The notes beneath the pieces are model-generated. The model saw nothing but the letters and a program-made list of their open reading frames with translations, searched no databases and was not told where the DNA came from. The position numbers and the translations under genes were made by a program. A DNA stretch of 45,704 nucleotides, counting the filler, from Anaerolineae bacterium (GTDB taxonomy: Bacteria; Chloroflexota; Anaerolineae; B4-G1; DUEL01), in the NCBI GenBank assembly GCA_041082215.1. It is 9 parts of 9 records of this genome, joined end to end, with 100 filler letters (N's around TTAATTAATTAA, not from the genome) between each part and the next. Parts side by side here need not be neighbours in the genome. Positions count along the whole stretch, not along the records: positions 35,307 to 37,124 come from JBDOIF010000131.1; 8 more parts are not named here. One strand, 5' to 3'. Below are positions 13,135 to 45,704 of this stretch, piece by piece. Position 1 is the stretch's first letter, and each line of letters starts with the position of its first letter.

Positions 13135-14586
13135 TTATGGTGCTACCTCCTGCCACGTAGACGCTACGTCCCAGCCGACTGCCCGGATCACCCGGCCGTC
13201 CAGCCGGCGCACGTAGAAGGGGATGCCGATAGACTCGTAGGACTGCATCTGCCAGAGCGTGTTGAACCCCTGCTCAGGGGCGGTGGCCCAGCCCAGCCGG
13301 TCGCGCACACTGGCGTTGGTGCGCCAGAGCTTGCCAAAGCCCCGGATCGGTTGATACAGCCCCGCCGGAGGTACGATGGACGGGTCGCTTTCCGGCTCCG
13401 CCTCCGTCCAGGTATCGGGGTACTTCTCATAGCGGCCGTCGTTGTAGAGCACCAGGATGACCTTCGAGTAGACAGAGGTCCCGGCGTGTACCTCCTCAAG
13501 CCAGATCATCCGCCCGTTCTGGAAGGGTTCCTCAGCGGCCCAGGTAGCGCTGGCCTCGTATGCCGGGCAGGTCCGTTCGCTGGTGGGGAAGAAGTAGGCA
13601 TAGCGACAACTCCACGGCACCACTACTGTGGCCTGGACCTCATTGCCGATTGCGTCCCGGGCCACCAGCGTCATCGTGGGGTCGCGGTAGTAAGTGCCCG
13701 CGACGTCCACGGTCCGGGTGCCCTCACCGGGCGGCGTCGCCTCCCAGTAAATGGGGAAGCGCACCTGGGTCCCGCTCCAGATGCCCGCGTGAGTCGCGCC
13801 CGTCGTCCGCCAGTAGAACCGGATCCGCTTGCCCCCCGATGGCAGGTCCTGCACCACCTCCGCAGTGAAGGAGAGAATCGCCAGCCCCGAGGGCGGCGGG
13901 GGGGTGGGCGTCACACAGACCACGCCACAGCCGCCCGGACAGACTCCGGGGCAATAGAGCACCTGACCGGGCAGGCAGGCGGGCGGTGTGCAGAGCGGGT
14001 AGACGGTGATGGTGGGGGTGGGAGTGGGCGTGCCCGGGACCACGATCTGGACCCAGATGATGGAGCCAAAGCGGGTGCCGTCGGGGGCCTGGAACTGGTA
14101 GTTGGCCCGATACGTCCCCGGCGCGGCCGGCGCGGTGAGGCTCACGCTCACATCGGTCTGGGCGCCGGAGACCAGTGCGGGCACGTCCACCGCCCCCGGG
14201 CCGCCCATCGCCGCGCCCGACACGAAGACCAGCCGCGTTCCCACCGGCCAGTCGCATGTGCCGGAGTTGCGCACCCGCCAGGTCTTGACAAAGGGGGTGC
14301 CGGGGGCAAAGGGGGTGTCGTCGGGGACGGTCACGTCGGCCACCCAGCGGGCGCCCAGGGTGCAACCCGCCGCCGTCGTCGGCTCGAGGGGGGTGGCCTC
14401 TTCGGTGGACGGAGTTACCTCCGGCGGGGTCGGAGAGATCGGCGTGACGCCGGCCACCTCCACGGTAGCGGTCGTCTCCGGCGTCGGCGTGACGATGAGC
14501 CTCGCCGTTGGCTCGCAGGCCAGCGCAGCCAGAAGAAACAGGCCCCCTGCAACGGCAGGGATAAGGAAACGCTTATTCCCCAACAT
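13135..14586 (-). CDS. Lipoprotein with NBR1-Ig-like domain
   Basis: Lipobox LAC; DVTVPDDT.FAPG.PFVKTWRVRNSGTCDW; C-terminal PIRGFGKLW...RDRLGWA domain; AGGAGG RBS. Confidence 0.85.
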   Translation of the reverse strand: MLGNKRFLIPAVAGGLFLLAALACEPTARLIVTPTPETTATVEVAGVTPISPTPPEVTPSTEEATPLEPTTAAGCTLGARWVADVTVPDDTPFAPGTPFVKTWRVRNSGTCDWPVGTRLVFVSGAAMGGPGAVDVPALVSGAQTDVSVSLTAPAAPGTYRANYQFQAPDGTRFGSIIWVQIVVPGTPTPTPTITVYPLCTPPACLPGQVLYCPGVCPGGCGVVCVTPTPPPPSGLAILSFTAEVVQDLPSGGKRIRFYWRTTGATHAGIWSGTQVRFPIYWEATPPGEGTRTVDVAGTYYRDPTMTLVARDAIGNEVQATVVVPWSCRYAYFFPTSERTCPAYEASATWAAEEPFQNGRMIWLEEVHAGTSVYSKVILVLYNDGRYEKYPDTWTEAEPESDPSIVPPAGLYQPIRGFGKLWRTNASVRDRLGWATAPEQGFNTLWQMQSYESIGIPFYVRRLDGRVIRAVGWDVASTWQEVAP

Positions 14587-15531: not shown

Positions 15532-16812
15532 TTATGGATACGTCAGGTTGATCGCCCCCTCGGCGCCCGGCGCGCTGAGGGCGGTCAGGGAGACGCGCCA
15601 GGTATCCCCAGCGGCAAAATCAGAGGCTGTTACATTGTAGGAGACGGAAAGGGGGCTGGGTCCATCTTTTCGGGCGTAGTAGCCCACCTGGCCAGGGCCG
15701 TTGATGATGAGCGCCATATTGGCCGGAGTGCCGCTCCAGTTCGCCTGAGCCTGGATGTTCCCTGCGCCCCGCAGGACCAGAAGGTTGACCGCTCTCCCAT
15801 AGCCGGGCTTCACCATGGTCTGCTCCGTGAAAGGCGAGACACTGGAACCGCTGGGATACGTGATGCGGACGGTCACATTGGCTTCCCCGGCCCCGAAACT
15901 GGCTACCGAGACCCACCAGGTATCCCCGGCAGCGAAATCCGCAGCGGTCACAGTGTAGGAGACCTCCAGCGGGCTGGGGCCATCGTGTCGCGCATAGTAG
16001 CCGGTTTGCCCGGGACCGTTGATGATGAGGGCCAGATTGCTCTGGCTGCCCGTCCATTCGGCCCGCACCCGAATCTCGCCTGGCCCGGTGAGGCGCAGGT
16101 AATAGATCGCGCGGTTATCCGCAACGGAGATGGGATGGCTCCAGTTCTGCGGCAACGGAGGCAGGATAATCGTAGGCACAATAATGGGAGTGAAGGCAAG
16201 GACAGGCGTGGGGGATGGGGCCGTTGTCGGCGCCTGCGTCGGCGCTTCGGTCGGAGGGGCTGTCGTGGCCGGGGCGGGCACCACAATCTGGACCCAGATG
16301 AGGGCGCCAAAGCGGGTGCCGTCGGGGGCCTGGAACTGGTAGTTGCCCCGGTACGTCCCTGGCGCGGCCGGCGCGGTGAGGCTCACGCTCACATCGGTCT
16401 GGGCGCCAGCGACCAGTGGCGGCACGTCCATAGCCGGAGGGCCGCCCATCGGGTCGCCGGAGATGAAGACCAGCTTCGTCCCTGGCTGCCAGTCGCAGGT
16501 GCCGGAGTTGCGCACCCGCCAGGTCTTGGCAAAGGGGGTGCCGGGGGCAAAGGGGGTGTCGTCGGGGACGGTCACGTCGGCCACCCAGCGGGCGCCCAGG
16601 GTGCAACCCGCCGCCGTCGTCGGCTCGGGGGGCGGCGTCTCCGTCGGCGGGGCGGGGGCAGTGGGGGACTGGATGGCCTCCGAGATGCCGGCGGCTGTCG
16701 CCTCCGGCGTCGGCGTGACGATGACGGTTGTCTGCAACGTACAGGTCAGCGTGGTCAGGAGCAGCAGAGCAATCGCCGCTGTGAGAATGGTACGGGTTTT
16801 GGGGGGGGTCAT
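15532..16812 (-). CDS. Lipoprotein with NBR1-Ig-like domain and two tandem C-terminal beta-sandwich repeats
   Basis: LTC lipobox-like motif; same NBR1-Ig motif as 13135-14586; two LALIINGPGQ.GYYAR.DGPSPL repeats; AGGAGG RBS. Confidence 0.85.
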   Translation of the reverse strand: MTPPKTRTILTAAIALLLLTTLTCTLQTTVIVTPTPEATAAGISEAIQSPTAPAPPTETPPPEPTTAAGCTLGARWVADVTVPDDTPFAPGTPFAKTWRVRNSGTCDWQPGTKLVFISGDPMGGPPAMDVPPLVAGAQTDVSVSLTAPAAPGTYRGNYQFQAPDGTRFGALIWVQIVVPAPATTAPPTEAPTQAPTTAPSPTPVLAFTPIIVPTIILPPLPQNWSHPISVADNRAIYYLRLTGPGEIRVRAEWTGSQSNLALIINGPGQTGYYARHDGPSPLEVSYTVTAADFAAGDTWWVSVASFGAGEANVTVRITYPSGSSVSPFTEQTMVKPGYGRAVNLLVLRGAGNIQAQANWSGTPANMALIINGPGQVGYYARKDGPSPLSVSYNVTASDFAAGDTWRVSLTALSAPGAEGAINLTYP

Positions 16813-21459: not shown

Positions 21460-21559
21460 NNNNNNNNNNNNNNNNNNNNNNNNNNNNNNNNNNNNNNNNN
21501 NNNTTAATTAATTAANNNNNNNNNNNNNNNNNNNNNNNNNNNNNNNNNNNNNNNNNNNN
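21460..21559. other. Artificial contig linker (also at 29836, 33671, 35207, 37125, 40292, 42692, 44581; 100 nt each)
   Basis: N44-TTAATTAATTAA-N44, with stops in all six frames. Confidence 0.98.
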
Positions 21560-29835: not shown

Positions 29836-29935
29836 NNNNNNNNNNNNNNNNNNNNNNNNNNNNNNNNNNNNNNNNNNNNTTAATTAATTAANNNNNNNNN
29901 NNNNNNNNNNNNNNNNNNNNNNNNNNNNNNNNNNN

Positions 29936-33670: not shown

Positions 33671-33770
33671 NNNNNNNNNNNNNNNNNNNNNNNNNNNNNN
33701 NNNNNNNNNNNNNNTTAATTAATTAANNNNNNNNNNNNNNNNNNNNNNNNNNNNNNNNNNNNNNNNNNNN

Positions 33771-35206: not shown

Positions 35207-35339
35207 NNNNNNNNNNNNNNNNNNNNNNNNNNNNNNNNNNNNNNNNNNNNTTAATTAATTAANNNNNNNNNNNNNNNNNNNNNNNNNNNNNNNNNNNNNN
35301 NNNNNNGGCGGGCGGCGAAGCCGCCCGCCCAAAAATCCC

Positions 35340-35399
35340 TTTCTTCACCCCCCTCTCCCCAGAGCGGAGCGATGGGGAGAGGGGGGCAAAGGGGGTGAG
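35340..35399. repeat. REP-like palindrome family B, interrupted by the IS110 insertion
   Basis: CCCCCCTCTCCCCAGAGCGGAGCGATGGGGAGAGGGGGGCAAAGGGGGTGAG, continuing as GGGCAAC at 36979; a similar copy lies at 41567-41618 (reverse). Confidence 0.75.
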
Positions 35400-35415
35400 A
35401 TACTATGTAGCAGAG

Positions 35416-35444
35416 TTGCTTAAGGGGGTCGCTTCGGGTAAGAT
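35416..35444 (+). promoter_or_regulatory. Candidate transposase promoter overlapping the left subterminal IR
   Basis: TTGCTT-N17-TAAGAT. Confidence 0.45.
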
Positions 35445-35496
35445 TCTGGTGAAAGACCTGCTATCCCGTTTTCAGATCAGGAAGGAGGTATTTGCG

Positions 35497-36615
35497 ATGA
35501 ACGAAGCGACCCCACAACCCACCCTGTATCTCGCTTTTGAACTGGGCGACCAGAAGTGGCGCCTCGGCTTCACCGTCGGGCTGGGACAACGACCCCGCGA
35601 GCGCATCATCCGCGCGGGAGACCTCTCCGCCCTCCAGCAGGAAATCGCCCGCGCCCGCCAGCGCTTCGGCCTCCCCGAGGATGCCCGTGTTCTCAGTTGC
35701 TACGAAGCCGGACGCGACGGCTTCTGGCTCCACCGCTACCTCCTGGCTCACGGTGTCCAGAACCTGGTGGTGGACTCGGCCAGCATTGAGGTCAAGCGCA
35801 AGGCCCGTCGGGCGAAAACTGACCACCTGGATGTGGTCAAGCTCCTGACCATGCTCATCCGCTTTGACCACGGGGAGAAAAAGGTCTGGAGCGTGGTGCG
35901 GGTGCCCGACGACCCGGTAGAAGACCGACGCCACCTCCACCGCCAGTTGCAGACCCTCAAGGAGGACCGGACTCGCTACCTCAACCGCATCCAGGGGCTC
36001 CTGGCCGGACAGGGGATTCGCCTCCGGATGGGGGCCGACTTTCTGGAGCGGTTGGGCCAGGTGCGGCGCTGGGACGGCTCTCCCCTGCCGGACGGGTTGC
36101 GCCGCCGACTGGAGATAGAGTACGCTGGCCTTCAGTTTGTGGAAGGGCAAATCCGCTATCTGGAGGCCCAGCGCCGCCATCTCCTCCGCACTTCGGACGA
36201 CCCGGATGTCCAGAAGGTGCGGAAGTTGCTCCAGTTGCGGAGCATCGGAGAGAACATTGCCTGGCCGCTGGTGGTGGAGTGCTTTGGCTGGCGGGAGTTC
36301 CGCAACCGCCGGGAGGTGGGAGGGCTGGTCGGGCTGGTGCCGCTGCCCTACCAGAGCGGCCAGGAGCGCCGAGATCAGGGCATCAGCAAGGCCGGGAATC
36401 CTTCCCTGCGGGCGCTGGCCATTGAACTGGCCTGGCTCTGGTTGCGGTATCAGCCCCAGAGCGAGTTGAGCCAGTGGTATCAGCGGCGATTCGGGAAGGG
36501 GAGCAAACGGCAGCGCAAAATCGGGATTGTGGCGCTGGCCCGGAGGTTGCTGATTGCCTTGTGGCGGTATCTGGAGTTTGGGGAGATTCCCGCCGGAGCG
36601 CAGTTGAAGGCGTAG
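35497..36615 (+). CDS. IS110-family recombinase/transposase
   Basis: LYLAFELG, CYEAG, KTDHLD (RuvC-like, first D replaced by E); GLVPLPYQSG, GISKAGN, IVALARRL; AGGAGGT RBS. Confidence 0.93.
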   Translation: MNEATPQPTLYLAFELGDQKWRLGFTVGLGQRPRERIIRAGDLSALQQEIARARQRFGLPEDARVLSCYEAGRDGFWLHRYLLAHGVQNLVVDSASIEVKRKARRAKTDHLDVVKLLTMLIRFDHGEKKVWSVVRVPDDPVEDRRHLHRQLQTLKEDRTRYLNRIQGLLAGQGIRLRMGADFLERLGQVRRWDGSPLPDGLRRRLEIEYAGLQFVEGQIRYLEAQRRHLLRTSDDPDVQKVRKLLQLRSIGENIAWPLVVECFGWREFRNRREVGGLVGLVPLPYQSGQERRDQGISKAGNPSLRALAIELAWLWLRYQPQSELSQWYQRRFGKGSKRQRKIGIVALARRLLIALWRYLEFGEIPAGAQLKA

Positions 36616-36619
36616 ACAA

Positions 36620-36900
36620 AGAGACTTTCCCCTCCCTTCGGGGTCGGGCCTCCTCCGGGAGGCCGGGGGGAGCGTGCCGGTTTTGCCCTGGGTTTTCCCG
36701 AAAGGGACCGCGGGTGAGAGGGAGCCGCTCCCCAGGTGCATACTCCCTGGACGCATCCGGTATGAGGTGTCTGGCCCAGGTGGGTCAGCACGGATAGAAG
36801 GCGGTGGAGGGCTGATTGGCCCGACGGGGAGGGTCCCCGGCTTGGTGGAGGGGGTTGCCCCGACAGGGGAAGGTTCGCTTCCGTCTGCGCTCGGTTTTTA
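36620..36900 (+). ncRNA. Predicted bridge/seekRNA in the 3' non-coding region (ends approximate)
   Basis: Target loop TTGCCC(36683-88)-hairpin-GGGTGAG(36712-18); donor loop GTAT(36760-63)-hairpin-ATAGAAG(36794-800); the segments match the flanks and the element ends. Confidence 0.7.
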
Positions 36901-37224
36901 AAGAAAAGAGCGACCCGAAGGGTCGGTAGAGGCCGCGCGTCTATTCACCAGAGCTTGACAAAAGCGACCTCATAGAAGGGGCAACAGAGCCGTTGCCAAA
37001 AGTGTTACCAATCATGAACGATCCCTGCAGAAAACCGTCAGAATCTCTGCGCCCTCCGCGTTCTCTGCGGTGAATTCCAGCTAACCGCACAGGCGAAAAG
37101 CCTGCGCATGTAAGCCGGGAAAGCNNNNNNNNNNNNNNNNNNNNNNNNNNNNNNNNNNNNNNNNNNNNTTAATTAATTAANNNNNNNNNNNNNNNNNNNN
37201 NNNNNNNNNNNNNNNNNNNNNNNN

Positions 37225-40291: not shown

Positions 40292-40392
40292 NNNNNNNNN
40301 NNNNNNNNNNNNNNNNNNNNNNNNNNNNNNNNNNNTTAATTAATTAANNNNNNNNNNNNNNNNNNNNNNNNNNNNNNNNNNNNNNNNNNNNA

Positions 40393-41566: not shown

Positions 41567-41618
41567 CTGCCCCTCTCCCCCCTGCCCCCCTCTCCCCCTC
41601 GCTTCGCTCTGGGGAGAG
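41567..41618 (-). repeat. REP-like palindrome family B with its left arm cut by IS110 copy 2
   Basis: Minus strand CTCTCCCCAGAGCGAAGCGAGGGGGAGAGGGGGGCAGGGGGGAGAGGGGCAG. Confidence 0.7.
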
Positions 41619-42691: not shown

Positions 42692-42791
42692 NNNNNNNNN
42701 NNNNNNNNNNNNNNNNNNNNNNNNNNNNNNNNNNNTTAATTAATTAANNNNNNNNNNNNNNNNNNNNNNNNNNNNNNNNNNNNNNNNNNNN

Positions 42792-44541: not shown

Positions 44542-44680
44542 CCTTTCACCTCTCTACGGCAATCTCCCGCCCGTCCAGGTNNNNNNNNNNNNNNNNNNNN
44601 NNNNNNNNNNNNNNNNNNNNNNNNTTAATTAATTAANNNNNNNNNNNNNNNNNNNNNNNNNNNNNNNNNNNNNNNNNNNN

Positions 44681-45214: not shown

Positions 45215-45704
45215 GCGCTATCTCTTTGAGCCACCTTCCCAATCTTCCCTCGCTTTGAGGGGCAGGCAGATCCGGAACCCGGCCCTGAAGGGCCGGGCTG
45301 GGGTTACGAAGCCCGCTGCGTGGGCTGCTGGCCCTCACCCCCAGCCCCTCTCCCACTGGCGCGGGAGAGGGGAGGGTAGAGCTACGCTTTGCGGCATTGC
45401 ACCACGATTAACGGTTGTACTCAAACATGTTCGGTCTGCACCTCCCCCCGCTGGGGGAAGGCAGAATATATGTGATCCGGAACCCGGCCCTGAAAGGTCG
45501 GGCTGGGGTTACGAAGGCCGCTGCGCGGGCTGATGGGGCCCCCCCCCAGCCCCCCGCCCCCGGGGGGGGTGGGGCAAGGGGGGGGGGGCATCAGCCCACG
45601 CAGCGGGCTTCGTAACCCCAGCCCGGCCCTTCAGGGCCGGGTTCCGGATCTGCCTGCCCCTCAAAGCGAGGGAAGATTGGGAAGGTGGCTCAAAGAGATA
45701 GCGC
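45215..45704. repeat. 113-bp inverted repeat enclosing REP-like units
   Basis: 45215-45327 is the reverse complement of 45592-45704; the unit GATCCGGAACCCGGCCCTGAA...GGGCTG also occurs as a direct repeat at 45269 and 45474. Confidence 0.85.

Follow-up and report, generated by a model that had tools for sequence, protein, structure and literature searches.

An intact IS110-family insertion sequence from a hot-spring Anaerolineae bacterium with an IS1111-like layout and a predicted 3'-encoded two-loop bridge RNA

Introduction

RNA-guided bridge recombinases are under development as genome-editing tools, and current knowledge of them rests mostly on IS621, ISCro4 and a small number of proteobacterial IS1111 elements. 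IS621 is said to target a repetitive extragenic palindromic (REP) sequence, a finding attributed to Choi et al. in 2003. Here we analyse a 45.7-kb stretch of DNA (the window) from an Anaerolineae bacterium (GCA_041082215.1), in which positions 35400-36978 are occupied by an insertion sequence (IS). It is very probably an intact, recently mobile IS110-family element that has an IS1111-like layout and encodes a two-loop bridge RNA at its 3' end.

The seekRNAs of the IS1111 elements ISEc11, ISPa11, ISKpn4 and ISPst6 are described as carrying the match to the top strand 5' of the match to the bottom strand, each element or group of elements having its own target site (passages in Siddiquee et al., 2024, PMC11187229). 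Bridge RNAs were predicted in the right ends of 93% of the ISfinder IS1111 elements, according to a passage in Durrant et al. (2024, PMC11208160). ISPpu9 of Pseudomonas putida, also of the IS110 family, is presented in excerpts of PMC12288879 as inserted in REPs and as having a small-RNA gene downstream of its transposase gene.

The window consists of nine contigs chained by N44-TTAATTAATTAA-N44 linkers (21460-21559, 29836-29935, 33671-33770, 35207-35306, 37125-37224, 40292-40391, 42692-42791, and 44581-44680). Since the contigs were joined artificially, genes on opposite sides of a linker are not genomic neighbours. The element is carried by the contig at 35307-37124 (1818 bp). Copy counts and repeat surveys in the host cover the 45.7-kb window, that is, part of one genome.

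Results and Discussion

Layout of the element and its relatives

The element (35400-36978, plus strand, as are all its parts; 1579 bp including the right-hand copy of the AG core) begins with ATACTATG at 35400 and ends with CATAGA-AG at 36978. Its boundaries follow from the termini conserved throughout the family (AT(A/G/C)CTATG on the left; TTGACA, about 12 nt and then CATAGAAG on the right) and from contigs of the empty site described below. The 97-nt left end (35400-35496) starts with ATAC, the right donor half, and includes CTATG (35403-35407), inner repeats and the ribosome binding site AAGGAGG (35482-35488). It is followed by the recombinase gene (35497-36615, 372 aa) and, after the stop codon at 36615, by a 363-nt right end which contains the 3' RNA region and extends to 36978. 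The right terminus (36944-36978) holds inner repeats, TTGACA (36955-36960), CATAG (36971-36975) and the AG core (36977-36978), the end and core together reading ATAGA-AG (36972-36978). The element is flanked by the left target half GGGTG with the other AG copy (35393-35399) and by the right target half GGGCAA (36979-36984). The span given in the original prediction, 35393-36985, covers the element but adds 7 nt of each flank; the motifs named there were all recovered where it had placed them. One copy of the element is present in the window.

A long right end with the RNA (363 nt here) and a short left end (97 nt) are traits of the IS1111 group according to passages in PMC11208160 and PMC11187229, and the same can be said of a long non-coding region downstream of the recombinase gene, a top-strand match that comes first and a target that varies by element. 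With IS621 and ISCro4, as far as passages in PMC11208160 and PMC11208158 describe them, the element shares a target and a donor loop with two arms each that address opposite strands, a 2-nt core present in both loops, handshake positions after the core and the same full-length fold. Unlike in those two elements, the RNA lies in the right end and not in the left, the arms come in the opposite order, the core is AG instead of CT, the left guide has 5+2 nt, and the recombinase can be aligned by sequence in its C-terminal part only.

Databases contain more than 8000 relatives of the recombinase, many of them annotated as Chloroflexi or Anaerolineae, and identity reaches 89%, 84%, and 76% in the closest. 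Two sets of loci were compiled: a genome set of 78 loci from species-representative genomes (protein identity 53-73%; hosts from Chloroflexota, Acidobacteriota, Gemmatimonadota and other phyla) and a metagenome set of 80 further loci (54-76%). The metagenome scan returned no copy above 76% protein identity; the 89% and 84% relatives are known as proteins.

The 3' region of the window element, used alone as an nhmmer query, matched 34 loci right behind stop codons. An iterated profile of its core was located right behind the stop codon in 72/78 genome loci and 73/80 metagenome loci; at least three of the six genome loci without the core end within or just past the gene. The common scaffold consists of three parts: CCCG, about 10 variable nt, GGGT, a hairpin, ACCG, five variable nt, AG and ATGGGGC; a spacer hairpin; and GCGAAT, CAG(Y)AT, 3 nt, GGTG, a hairpin, CACGG, ATAGAAG and then G, T or C. 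The parallel arrangement of two units, each with two guides around a hairpin, on which the original prediction leaned most, is not easily obtained by chance: in mononucleotide shuffles of the 356-nt region after the stop the first unit occurred in 146/200,000, the second in 102/200,000, and both together in 0/200,000.

Guides of the target loop follow the flanks

The first unit lies in a putative target-binding loop (loop 1, 36667-36733). Its 5' arm (36680-36689) contains TTGCCC (36683-36688), the reverse complement of the right target half, and is followed by an apical hairpin (36690-36709) and by a 3' arm (36712-36718) identical to GGGTG+AG to the left of the element. The next base, A36719, equals the first base of the left end. 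The guides of the window element thus match their flanks at 7/7 positions on the left (GGGTG+AG) and 6/6 on the right. TTGCCC (36683) stands 5' of GGGTGAG (36712), and all aligned loci have the same order; the anticipated short-guide-first arrangement, with the top-strand match 5' of the bottom-strand match as passages on IS1111 seekRNAs report (PMC11187229), therefore holds.

Covariation between guides and flanks was evaluated with ends placed from the conserved termini, independently of the guides, and with one row per distinct guide. In the genome set, the loop-1 3' arm agreed with the 5 nt left of AG at 4.07/5 positions on average (1.56 permuted, n = 45), and the reverse complement of the 5' arm agreed with the right flank at 5.02/8 (2.30 permuted, n = 50), with 0/20,000 permutations in both cases. 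Match rates were 0.69, 0.69, 0.91, 0.82, and 0.96 at positions -7 to -3 of the left flank and 0.74, 0.86, 0.68, 0.66, 0.68, 0.48, 0.48, and 0.38 at positions +1 to +8 of the right flank; positions outside the guides (-10 to -8, +9, +10) remained at background. The same fixed procedure applied to the metagenome set gave 4.10 vs. 1.55 on the left (n = 29) and 4.64 vs. 2.58 on the right (n = 42), again with 0/20,000 permutations each. The guide/flank check proposed together with the original prediction thus came out positive in the genome set and in the independent metagenome set.

A case of natural retargeting is provided by L084, the closest relative with available DNA (76% identical protein). 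It retains the left guide GGGTGAG and is inserted after GAGGGGTGAG, while its right arm differs and its right flank is altered correspondingly. Support for the description of the system as reprogrammable comes from such natural variation of guides and targets. A relative on a Paraburkholderia plasmid (L160, 53% identity) was considered as a multi-copy test and set aside, as the plasmid collection holds a single full copy of it; its right arm matches the flank at 8/9 positions and its left arm matches weakly.

Many relatives have the target (C)CGTTAG / GC(G/A)GC in common (the slash standing for the insertion point). The loci concerned include L002, L003, L011, L020, L022-L024, L032, L033, L079-L085, L100, and L111-L143. 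This common target suggests that the clade favours some widespread conserved or repeated host sequence.

Donor loop and handshake positions

The second unit lies in a putative donor-binding loop (loop 2, 36750-36806), in which GTAT of the 5' arm (36760-36763) is the complement of the left end ATAC. The apical hairpin (36767-36791) separates it from the 3' arm ATAGA+AG (36794-36800), behind which G36801 equals the first base of the right flank.

The 7-mer of the loop-2 3' arm is identical to the 7-mer of the right end in 56/60 genome loci and 57/62 metagenome loci (113/122). Where the variant ATAGGAG occurs, it is present in arm and end alike (3/3 genome and 8/9 metagenome loci, 11/12 together). 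Position 3 of the left end, which can be A, G or C, agrees with the reverse complement of the loop-2 5' arm in 34/47 genome loci (17.4 permuted) and 52/68 metagenome loci (86/115).

The donor arm also carries information on the target. Its base after the core is the first base of the right flank in 46/52 genome loci (23.1 permuted, 0/20,000) and 58/61 metagenome loci (40.5 permuted), i.e., in 104/113. Conversely, the bases after the core in the target arm are AT where left ends start with AT, and AA in 3/3 elements starting with AAAC. At the first base after the core the window element follows this pattern in both loops, with G36801 = G36979 and A36719 = A35400. By analogy, the base after the core appears to mirror the handshake guide of IS621 as passages in PMC11208158 describe it.

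Recombinase

The gene starts at ATG 35497 with AAGGAGG upstream. An alternative start at GTG 35395 was rejected because the 39 aligned homologues begin at the 35497 Met. The reading frame is open and retains all the residues invariant across the 39-sequence alignment. The product matches PF01548 (30.9 bits, cutoff 29), PF02371 (52.3, cutoff 21.3) and the NCBIfam model NF033542 "IS110 family RNA-guided transposase" (184 bits, cutoff 140). It is composed of a RuvC-like domain (E15, E70, D109, D112), a coiled coil and a Tnp domain with Ser287 in YQSGQ, and so has the combination by which the IS110 family is recognised, a RuvC-like DEDD domain and PF02371 with Ser/Thr-Gly.

Sequence similarity to IS621 and ISCro4 is limited to the C-terminal domain, YQSGQ falling on their YESGSS serine region. 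In an hhalign comparison with IS5075, a classical IS1111-group element taken from a plasmid record, residues 69-357 were aligned at 26% identity, placing E70, D109, D112 and S287-G on its E, D, D and T-G. In the AlphaFold model (pLDDT 80.2) strands and helices follow one another as in an RNase H/RuvC fold, with E15 at the end of strand 1 and E70 at the end of strand 4. Top Foldseek matches in the PDB were ISCro4 (9t56) and IS621 (8wt9, 8wt6) with E-values of 4e-11 to 7e-10; best-match TM scores were 0.50-0.61 (0.54/0.61 for the top hit) over about 365-370 columns, so the full-length fold is matched. By its domains and by this bridge-recombinase fold the protein is an IS110-family recombinase.

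E15 is invariant in the 39-sequence alignment, and among 83 related loci with a readable motif this position is E in 75 and D in 8. Given its location at the end of strand 1 and this D/E exchange, E15 is probably equivalent to the first Asp of other family members. The proposed E-E-D-D catalytic set thus finds support for all four residues, the other three coinciding with the E, D and D of IS5075.

Empty site and other insertion sites

All or part of the stretch is found in 20 sequencing runs from nine studies, nearly all of them labelled hot-spring metagenomes. The runs are stored as contigs from which rare forms are dropped; two DNA runs and two RNA-library runs were compared with the element contig. 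Each of the two DNA runs contributed one contig which joins 35385 to 36977, skipping 1591 bases. At the joint these contigs have eleven other letters ending in GGGTG, followed by AG-GGGCAAC with the right target half directly after AG, and go on to 37124 with few differences. They are the element-free form of the same locus with a slightly different left flank, and confirm both the element boundaries and the single AG. The empty target GGGTG-AG-GGGCAA, originally deduced from the occupied locus, is thus seen directly in contigs of two DNA runs. As expected of site-specific insertion, the 2-nt AG core flanks the element on both sides and no longer duplication is present.

Three contigs contain other sequence before 35392, each joined to GGGGTGAG and then ATAC. 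One of these three left flanks places the element behind GGGAGAGGGG and two place it behind other GC-rich hairpins. A contig of the RNA run X9 has a related left flank directly followed by GGGCAGCAAGG, which is another empty near-target. One contig of run X2 differs in a 209-nt skip, from 36576 to 36786.

Palindromic repeat beside the target

The left flank contains a REP-like palindrome (35343-35391, plus strand) with arms at 35343-35361 and 35373-35391 and the core CCCCTCTCCCC-N12-GGGGAGAGGGG; the 19-nt inverted repeat is 89% complementary. Two related units of the CCCCTCTCCC...GGGAGAGGGG palindrome family lie on the minus strand at 41567-41618 and 45328-45372, and are followed by the unoccupied near-targets GGGAGAG / GGGCAG and GGGTGAG / GGCCAG, respectively. 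It follows that the target is located on the 3' shoulder of a palindromic repeat with dispersed units. The notion that the RNA is programmed against a REP palindrome is upheld in part, inasmuch as the target adjoins such a unit and two more occur in the window, but it rests on part of one genome. A search of the window for the exact empty target found no site with fewer than two mismatches; six near-targets were found vs. 2.85 expected, which is the level of chance, and two of the six adjoin REP-like units.

Matches of 16 nt to the left flank at 14302 and 16543 were rejected as REP units since they lie in a repeated coding segment. The surrounding sequences, 14289-14330 and 16528-16570, are near-identical (...GGTCTTG(A/G)CAAAGGGGGTGCCGGGGGCAAAGGGGGTGTCGTCGGGGACGG...) and look like a repeated coding segment of paralogous genes; the 16 nt that they have in common with the left flank of the IS are probably a chance effect of composition.

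A second short repeat is located in the right flank (37043-37075). It has a 27-nt copy on another contig (45143-45169, minus strand, 89% identity). Many contigs break on both sides of it, and its summed depth in run X2 is about 1950 vs. about 225 over the IS. This repeat may represent a further REP-like family.

Ends, inverted repeats, and a candidate junction promoter

The ends have a 5-bp terminal inverted repeat, CATAG/CTATG, in 91/110 loci, and the compensated form TATAG/CTATA was seen in 3/3. Two inner repeat pairs link the left and right ends of the window element: an 8-bp pair, GGTCGCTT (35427-35434) with AAGCGACC (36962-36969), and a 9-bp pair, TCTGGTGAA (35445-35453) with TTCACCAGA (36944-36952). 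They lie at unequal distances from the two termini. Family-wide, the longest word common to left and right ends has a mean length of 6.66 vs. 5.46 permuted, the highest value among 200 permutations being 5.74. The inner repeats may be bound by the recombinase, or they may bring the two ends of a full-length transcript together by pairing.

TTGACA (36955-36960) is invariant in close relatives and may serve as the -35 box of a promoter formed at the junction of the excised circle. For ISEc11 a junction promoter (Pjunc) is said to be known.

Structure of the predicted RNA

Of the 57 distinct sequences, 51 were submitted to RNAalifold and six without the spacer hairpin were excluded. Both apical stems were predicted and 8/12 pairs are kept through two-sided changes; G-U pairs are frequent as intermediates, which argues for an RNA read from the sense strand. 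Compensatory pairs support the apical hairpin of loop 1 and its basal stem (36667-36674 with 36726-36733), and the apical hairpin of loop 2 has many compensatory changes. In a hidden Markov model (HMM) alignment of full-length distinct rows the loop-1 basal stem (GAGC./.GCTC) is paired in 24-31/33 rows. This alignment superseded a fixed-offset scan of basal stems that was spoiled by indels. RNA-library contigs span the gene and the 3' region (e.g., 35659-36980), indicating presence in the library rather than transcription.

Loci L045, L047, L049, L052, L054, L070, L074 and others form a subgroup without the spacer hairpin, in which AAGG replaces ATGG after the target core and left ends start with AAAC, AGAC or ACAC. 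An extra bridge-RNA core is found at L024:1075-1210 and L020:2-86, about 2.5 kb upstream of the core belonging to the fetched element; it may belong to another IS copy nearby or represent a solo RNA gene. The hairpin CGACCC-GAA-GGGTCG (36911-36925), conserved in the closest five relatives and followed by a T-rich run on the minus strand, resembles a terminator of antisense transcription that enters from the right flank. No other terminator-like site occurs on the contig of the element, and a single one is no more than expected by chance.

Alternative explanations

Covariation of guides with flanks, covariation of loop 2 with the ends and the left target common to other copies all speak for a bridge RNA, and we consider it very probable that the element is intact, recently mobile and equipped with two loops. 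A number of observations weigh against this interpretation. In the donor loop, about one quarter of the loci mismatch at position 3 of the left end. In 9/47 genome and 12/68 metagenome loci (21/115) the arm predicts ATGC and the integrated end is ATAC, a recurrent and one-directional deviation. G36720, the second base after the core in loop 1 of the window element, mismatches T35401. The loop-2 basal stem is weak (17-29/33 rows paired, one candidate pair in 1/33).

Alternatively, loop 1 alone could act as a short target-picking seekRNA, unit 2 being a conserved scaffold or protein-binding segment that resembles the ends because both are conserved. It is true that the ends and unit 2 are nearly invariant (ATAGAAG in 53/60 loci), which leaves most of their match uninformative, position 3 of the left end is mismatched in that quarter of the loci, and seekRNAs of 82-96 nt were the main species according to passages in Siddiquee et al. 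(PMC11187229). Where ends do vary, however, unit 2 varies with them: ATAGGAG is carried by arm and end in 11/12 loci, and agreement at position 3 of the left end is well above permutation. Moreover, in 104/113 loci the base that follows the core in unit 2 agrees with the right flank, a sequence outside the element; unless a donor loop comes into contact with the target, such agreement is difficult to account for. We therefore regard a function of loop 1 alone as improbable.

Other points against our interpretation concern the contigs of the sequencing runs. Two other right flanks after 36980 read GGCACC and GGCAGG; they keep GG and then have CA, departing from GGGCAA at +3. The expectation that other copies sit in GGGTGAG / GGGCAA is thus correct for the left half, which three sites have in common, but two right flanks deviate. 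The circle junction ATAGA-AG-ATAC, a sequence derived from the ends, was absent from the contigs of the runs, where rare forms are dropped. The DNA runs possibly include the source sample of the window and are to that extent not independent of it. That the window copy is a dead, immobile relic of a bridge-RNA element could be argued from this missing junction and from the single copy in the window. This is slightly less probable still, as the frame is open with all the residues invariant in 39 sequences, the guides match the flanks at 7/7 and 6/6 positions, the locus is found with and without the element, and other insertion sites occur in the same hot-spring communities.

The remaining points against concern the transcript itself. 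An Rfam search (E up to 10) assigned no family to the 3' region, returning only chance miRNA-like hits on the flank hairpin. The RNA-library contigs reveal no RNA ends, strand or abundance, and libraries of this kind can hold DNA. No sigma-70-like promoter was found on the integrated contig. That the conserved 3' region acts as DNA, in the form of folded single strands or recombinase-binding sites, would accommodate the lack of visible transcript ends and of a promoter in the integrated copy, but is scarcely credible. Read from the opposite strand, the G-U intermediates of the plus strand (e.g., UG 4-6 and GU 6 at a number of pairs) would become C-A. In addition, the protein is related to bridge recombinases whose structures were solved together with their RNA, and RNA-library contigs cover the region, weak as this last argument is.

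Proposed mechanism

With a two-loop bridge RNA as the preferred explanation, the element would work as follows. The right end would encode a bridge RNA (seekRNA) that is about 140 nt long and forms two internal loops. The 5' arm of loop 1 would pair with GGGCAA(.A), the right target half, on the top strand, while its 3' arm, carrying the left target half and core GGGTG-AG, would pair with the bottom strand. Loop 2 would read the joined ends of the excised circle, GTAT pairing with ATAC, and ATAGA-AG matching the right end and core. The one or two bases that follow the core in each 3' arm would match the partner DNA, A(T) of loop 1 being the start of the left end and G of loop 2 the first base of the flank; these handshake guides may stabilise the product of top-strand exchange. 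The recombinase, using its E-E-D-D set and Ser, would cut and exchange strands at the AG core, inserting the circle between GGGTG-AG and GGGCAA and leaving AG on both sides. The circle junction would place TTGACA at a distance of 17 nt from GATACT, or of 19 nt from TACTAT, and the resulting junction promoter would presumably drive both the recombinase and the downstream RNA.

Affiliation and significance

Several traits set the element apart from the IS1111 group. The recombinase has 372 aa vs. 330-350 aa, its N-terminus is unaligned with IS5075, and its first catalytic residue is E rather than D. IS1111 elements have subterminal repeats of 7-17 bp, which the 5-bp terminal and displaced 8-9-bp repeats found here do not cleanly match. 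Hosts are Chloroflexota, Acidobacteriota and Gemmatimonadota metagenome-assembled genomes (MAGs), not Proteobacteria. Since the layout and arm order fit the IS1111 group and two of its traits are not cleanly matched, we file the element as IS110-family with an IS1111-like layout. Our inference is of the same type as the right-end predictions in the corresponding passages of Durrant et al. (covariance models, guide/flank covariation; PMC11208160) and leads to the same conclusion. ISPpu9 is similar in being an IS110-family element with REP insertion and a downstream small RNA, and dissimilar in host and sequence family, a likeness drawn from its description in excerpts of the source.

The mechanism is not new in principle, as bridge RNA and seekRNA systems were published in 2024. 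We tentatively suggest, without favouring it, that the element and several hundred relatives constitute a separate deep IS110 clade, neither classical IS110 nor IS1111. If true, this clade would combine a 3' two-loop bridge RNA, a tetrad with E in first place and 5-bp terminal plus displaced inner repeats with an AG core, a 5+2-nt left guide and a single-base handshake, and its hosts would be mainly Chloroflexota, Acidobacteriota and Gemmatimonadota.

The present locus adds an intact hot-spring element with the less-studied 3'-encoded RNA; given the origin of this copy in hot-spring communities, its bridge recombinase could be heat-tolerant by nature. The element is accompanied by more than 140 loci with naturally varied guides, and more than 100 natural guide/target pairs map the programmable positions: 5 nt on the left plus the AG core, about 6-8 nt on the right and one handshake base, the remainder being fixed scaffold. 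The natural loci also indicate that the first catalytic Asp is replaceable by Glu. Overall, the value of the family lies in its diversity and in a ready test set rather than in a new principle.

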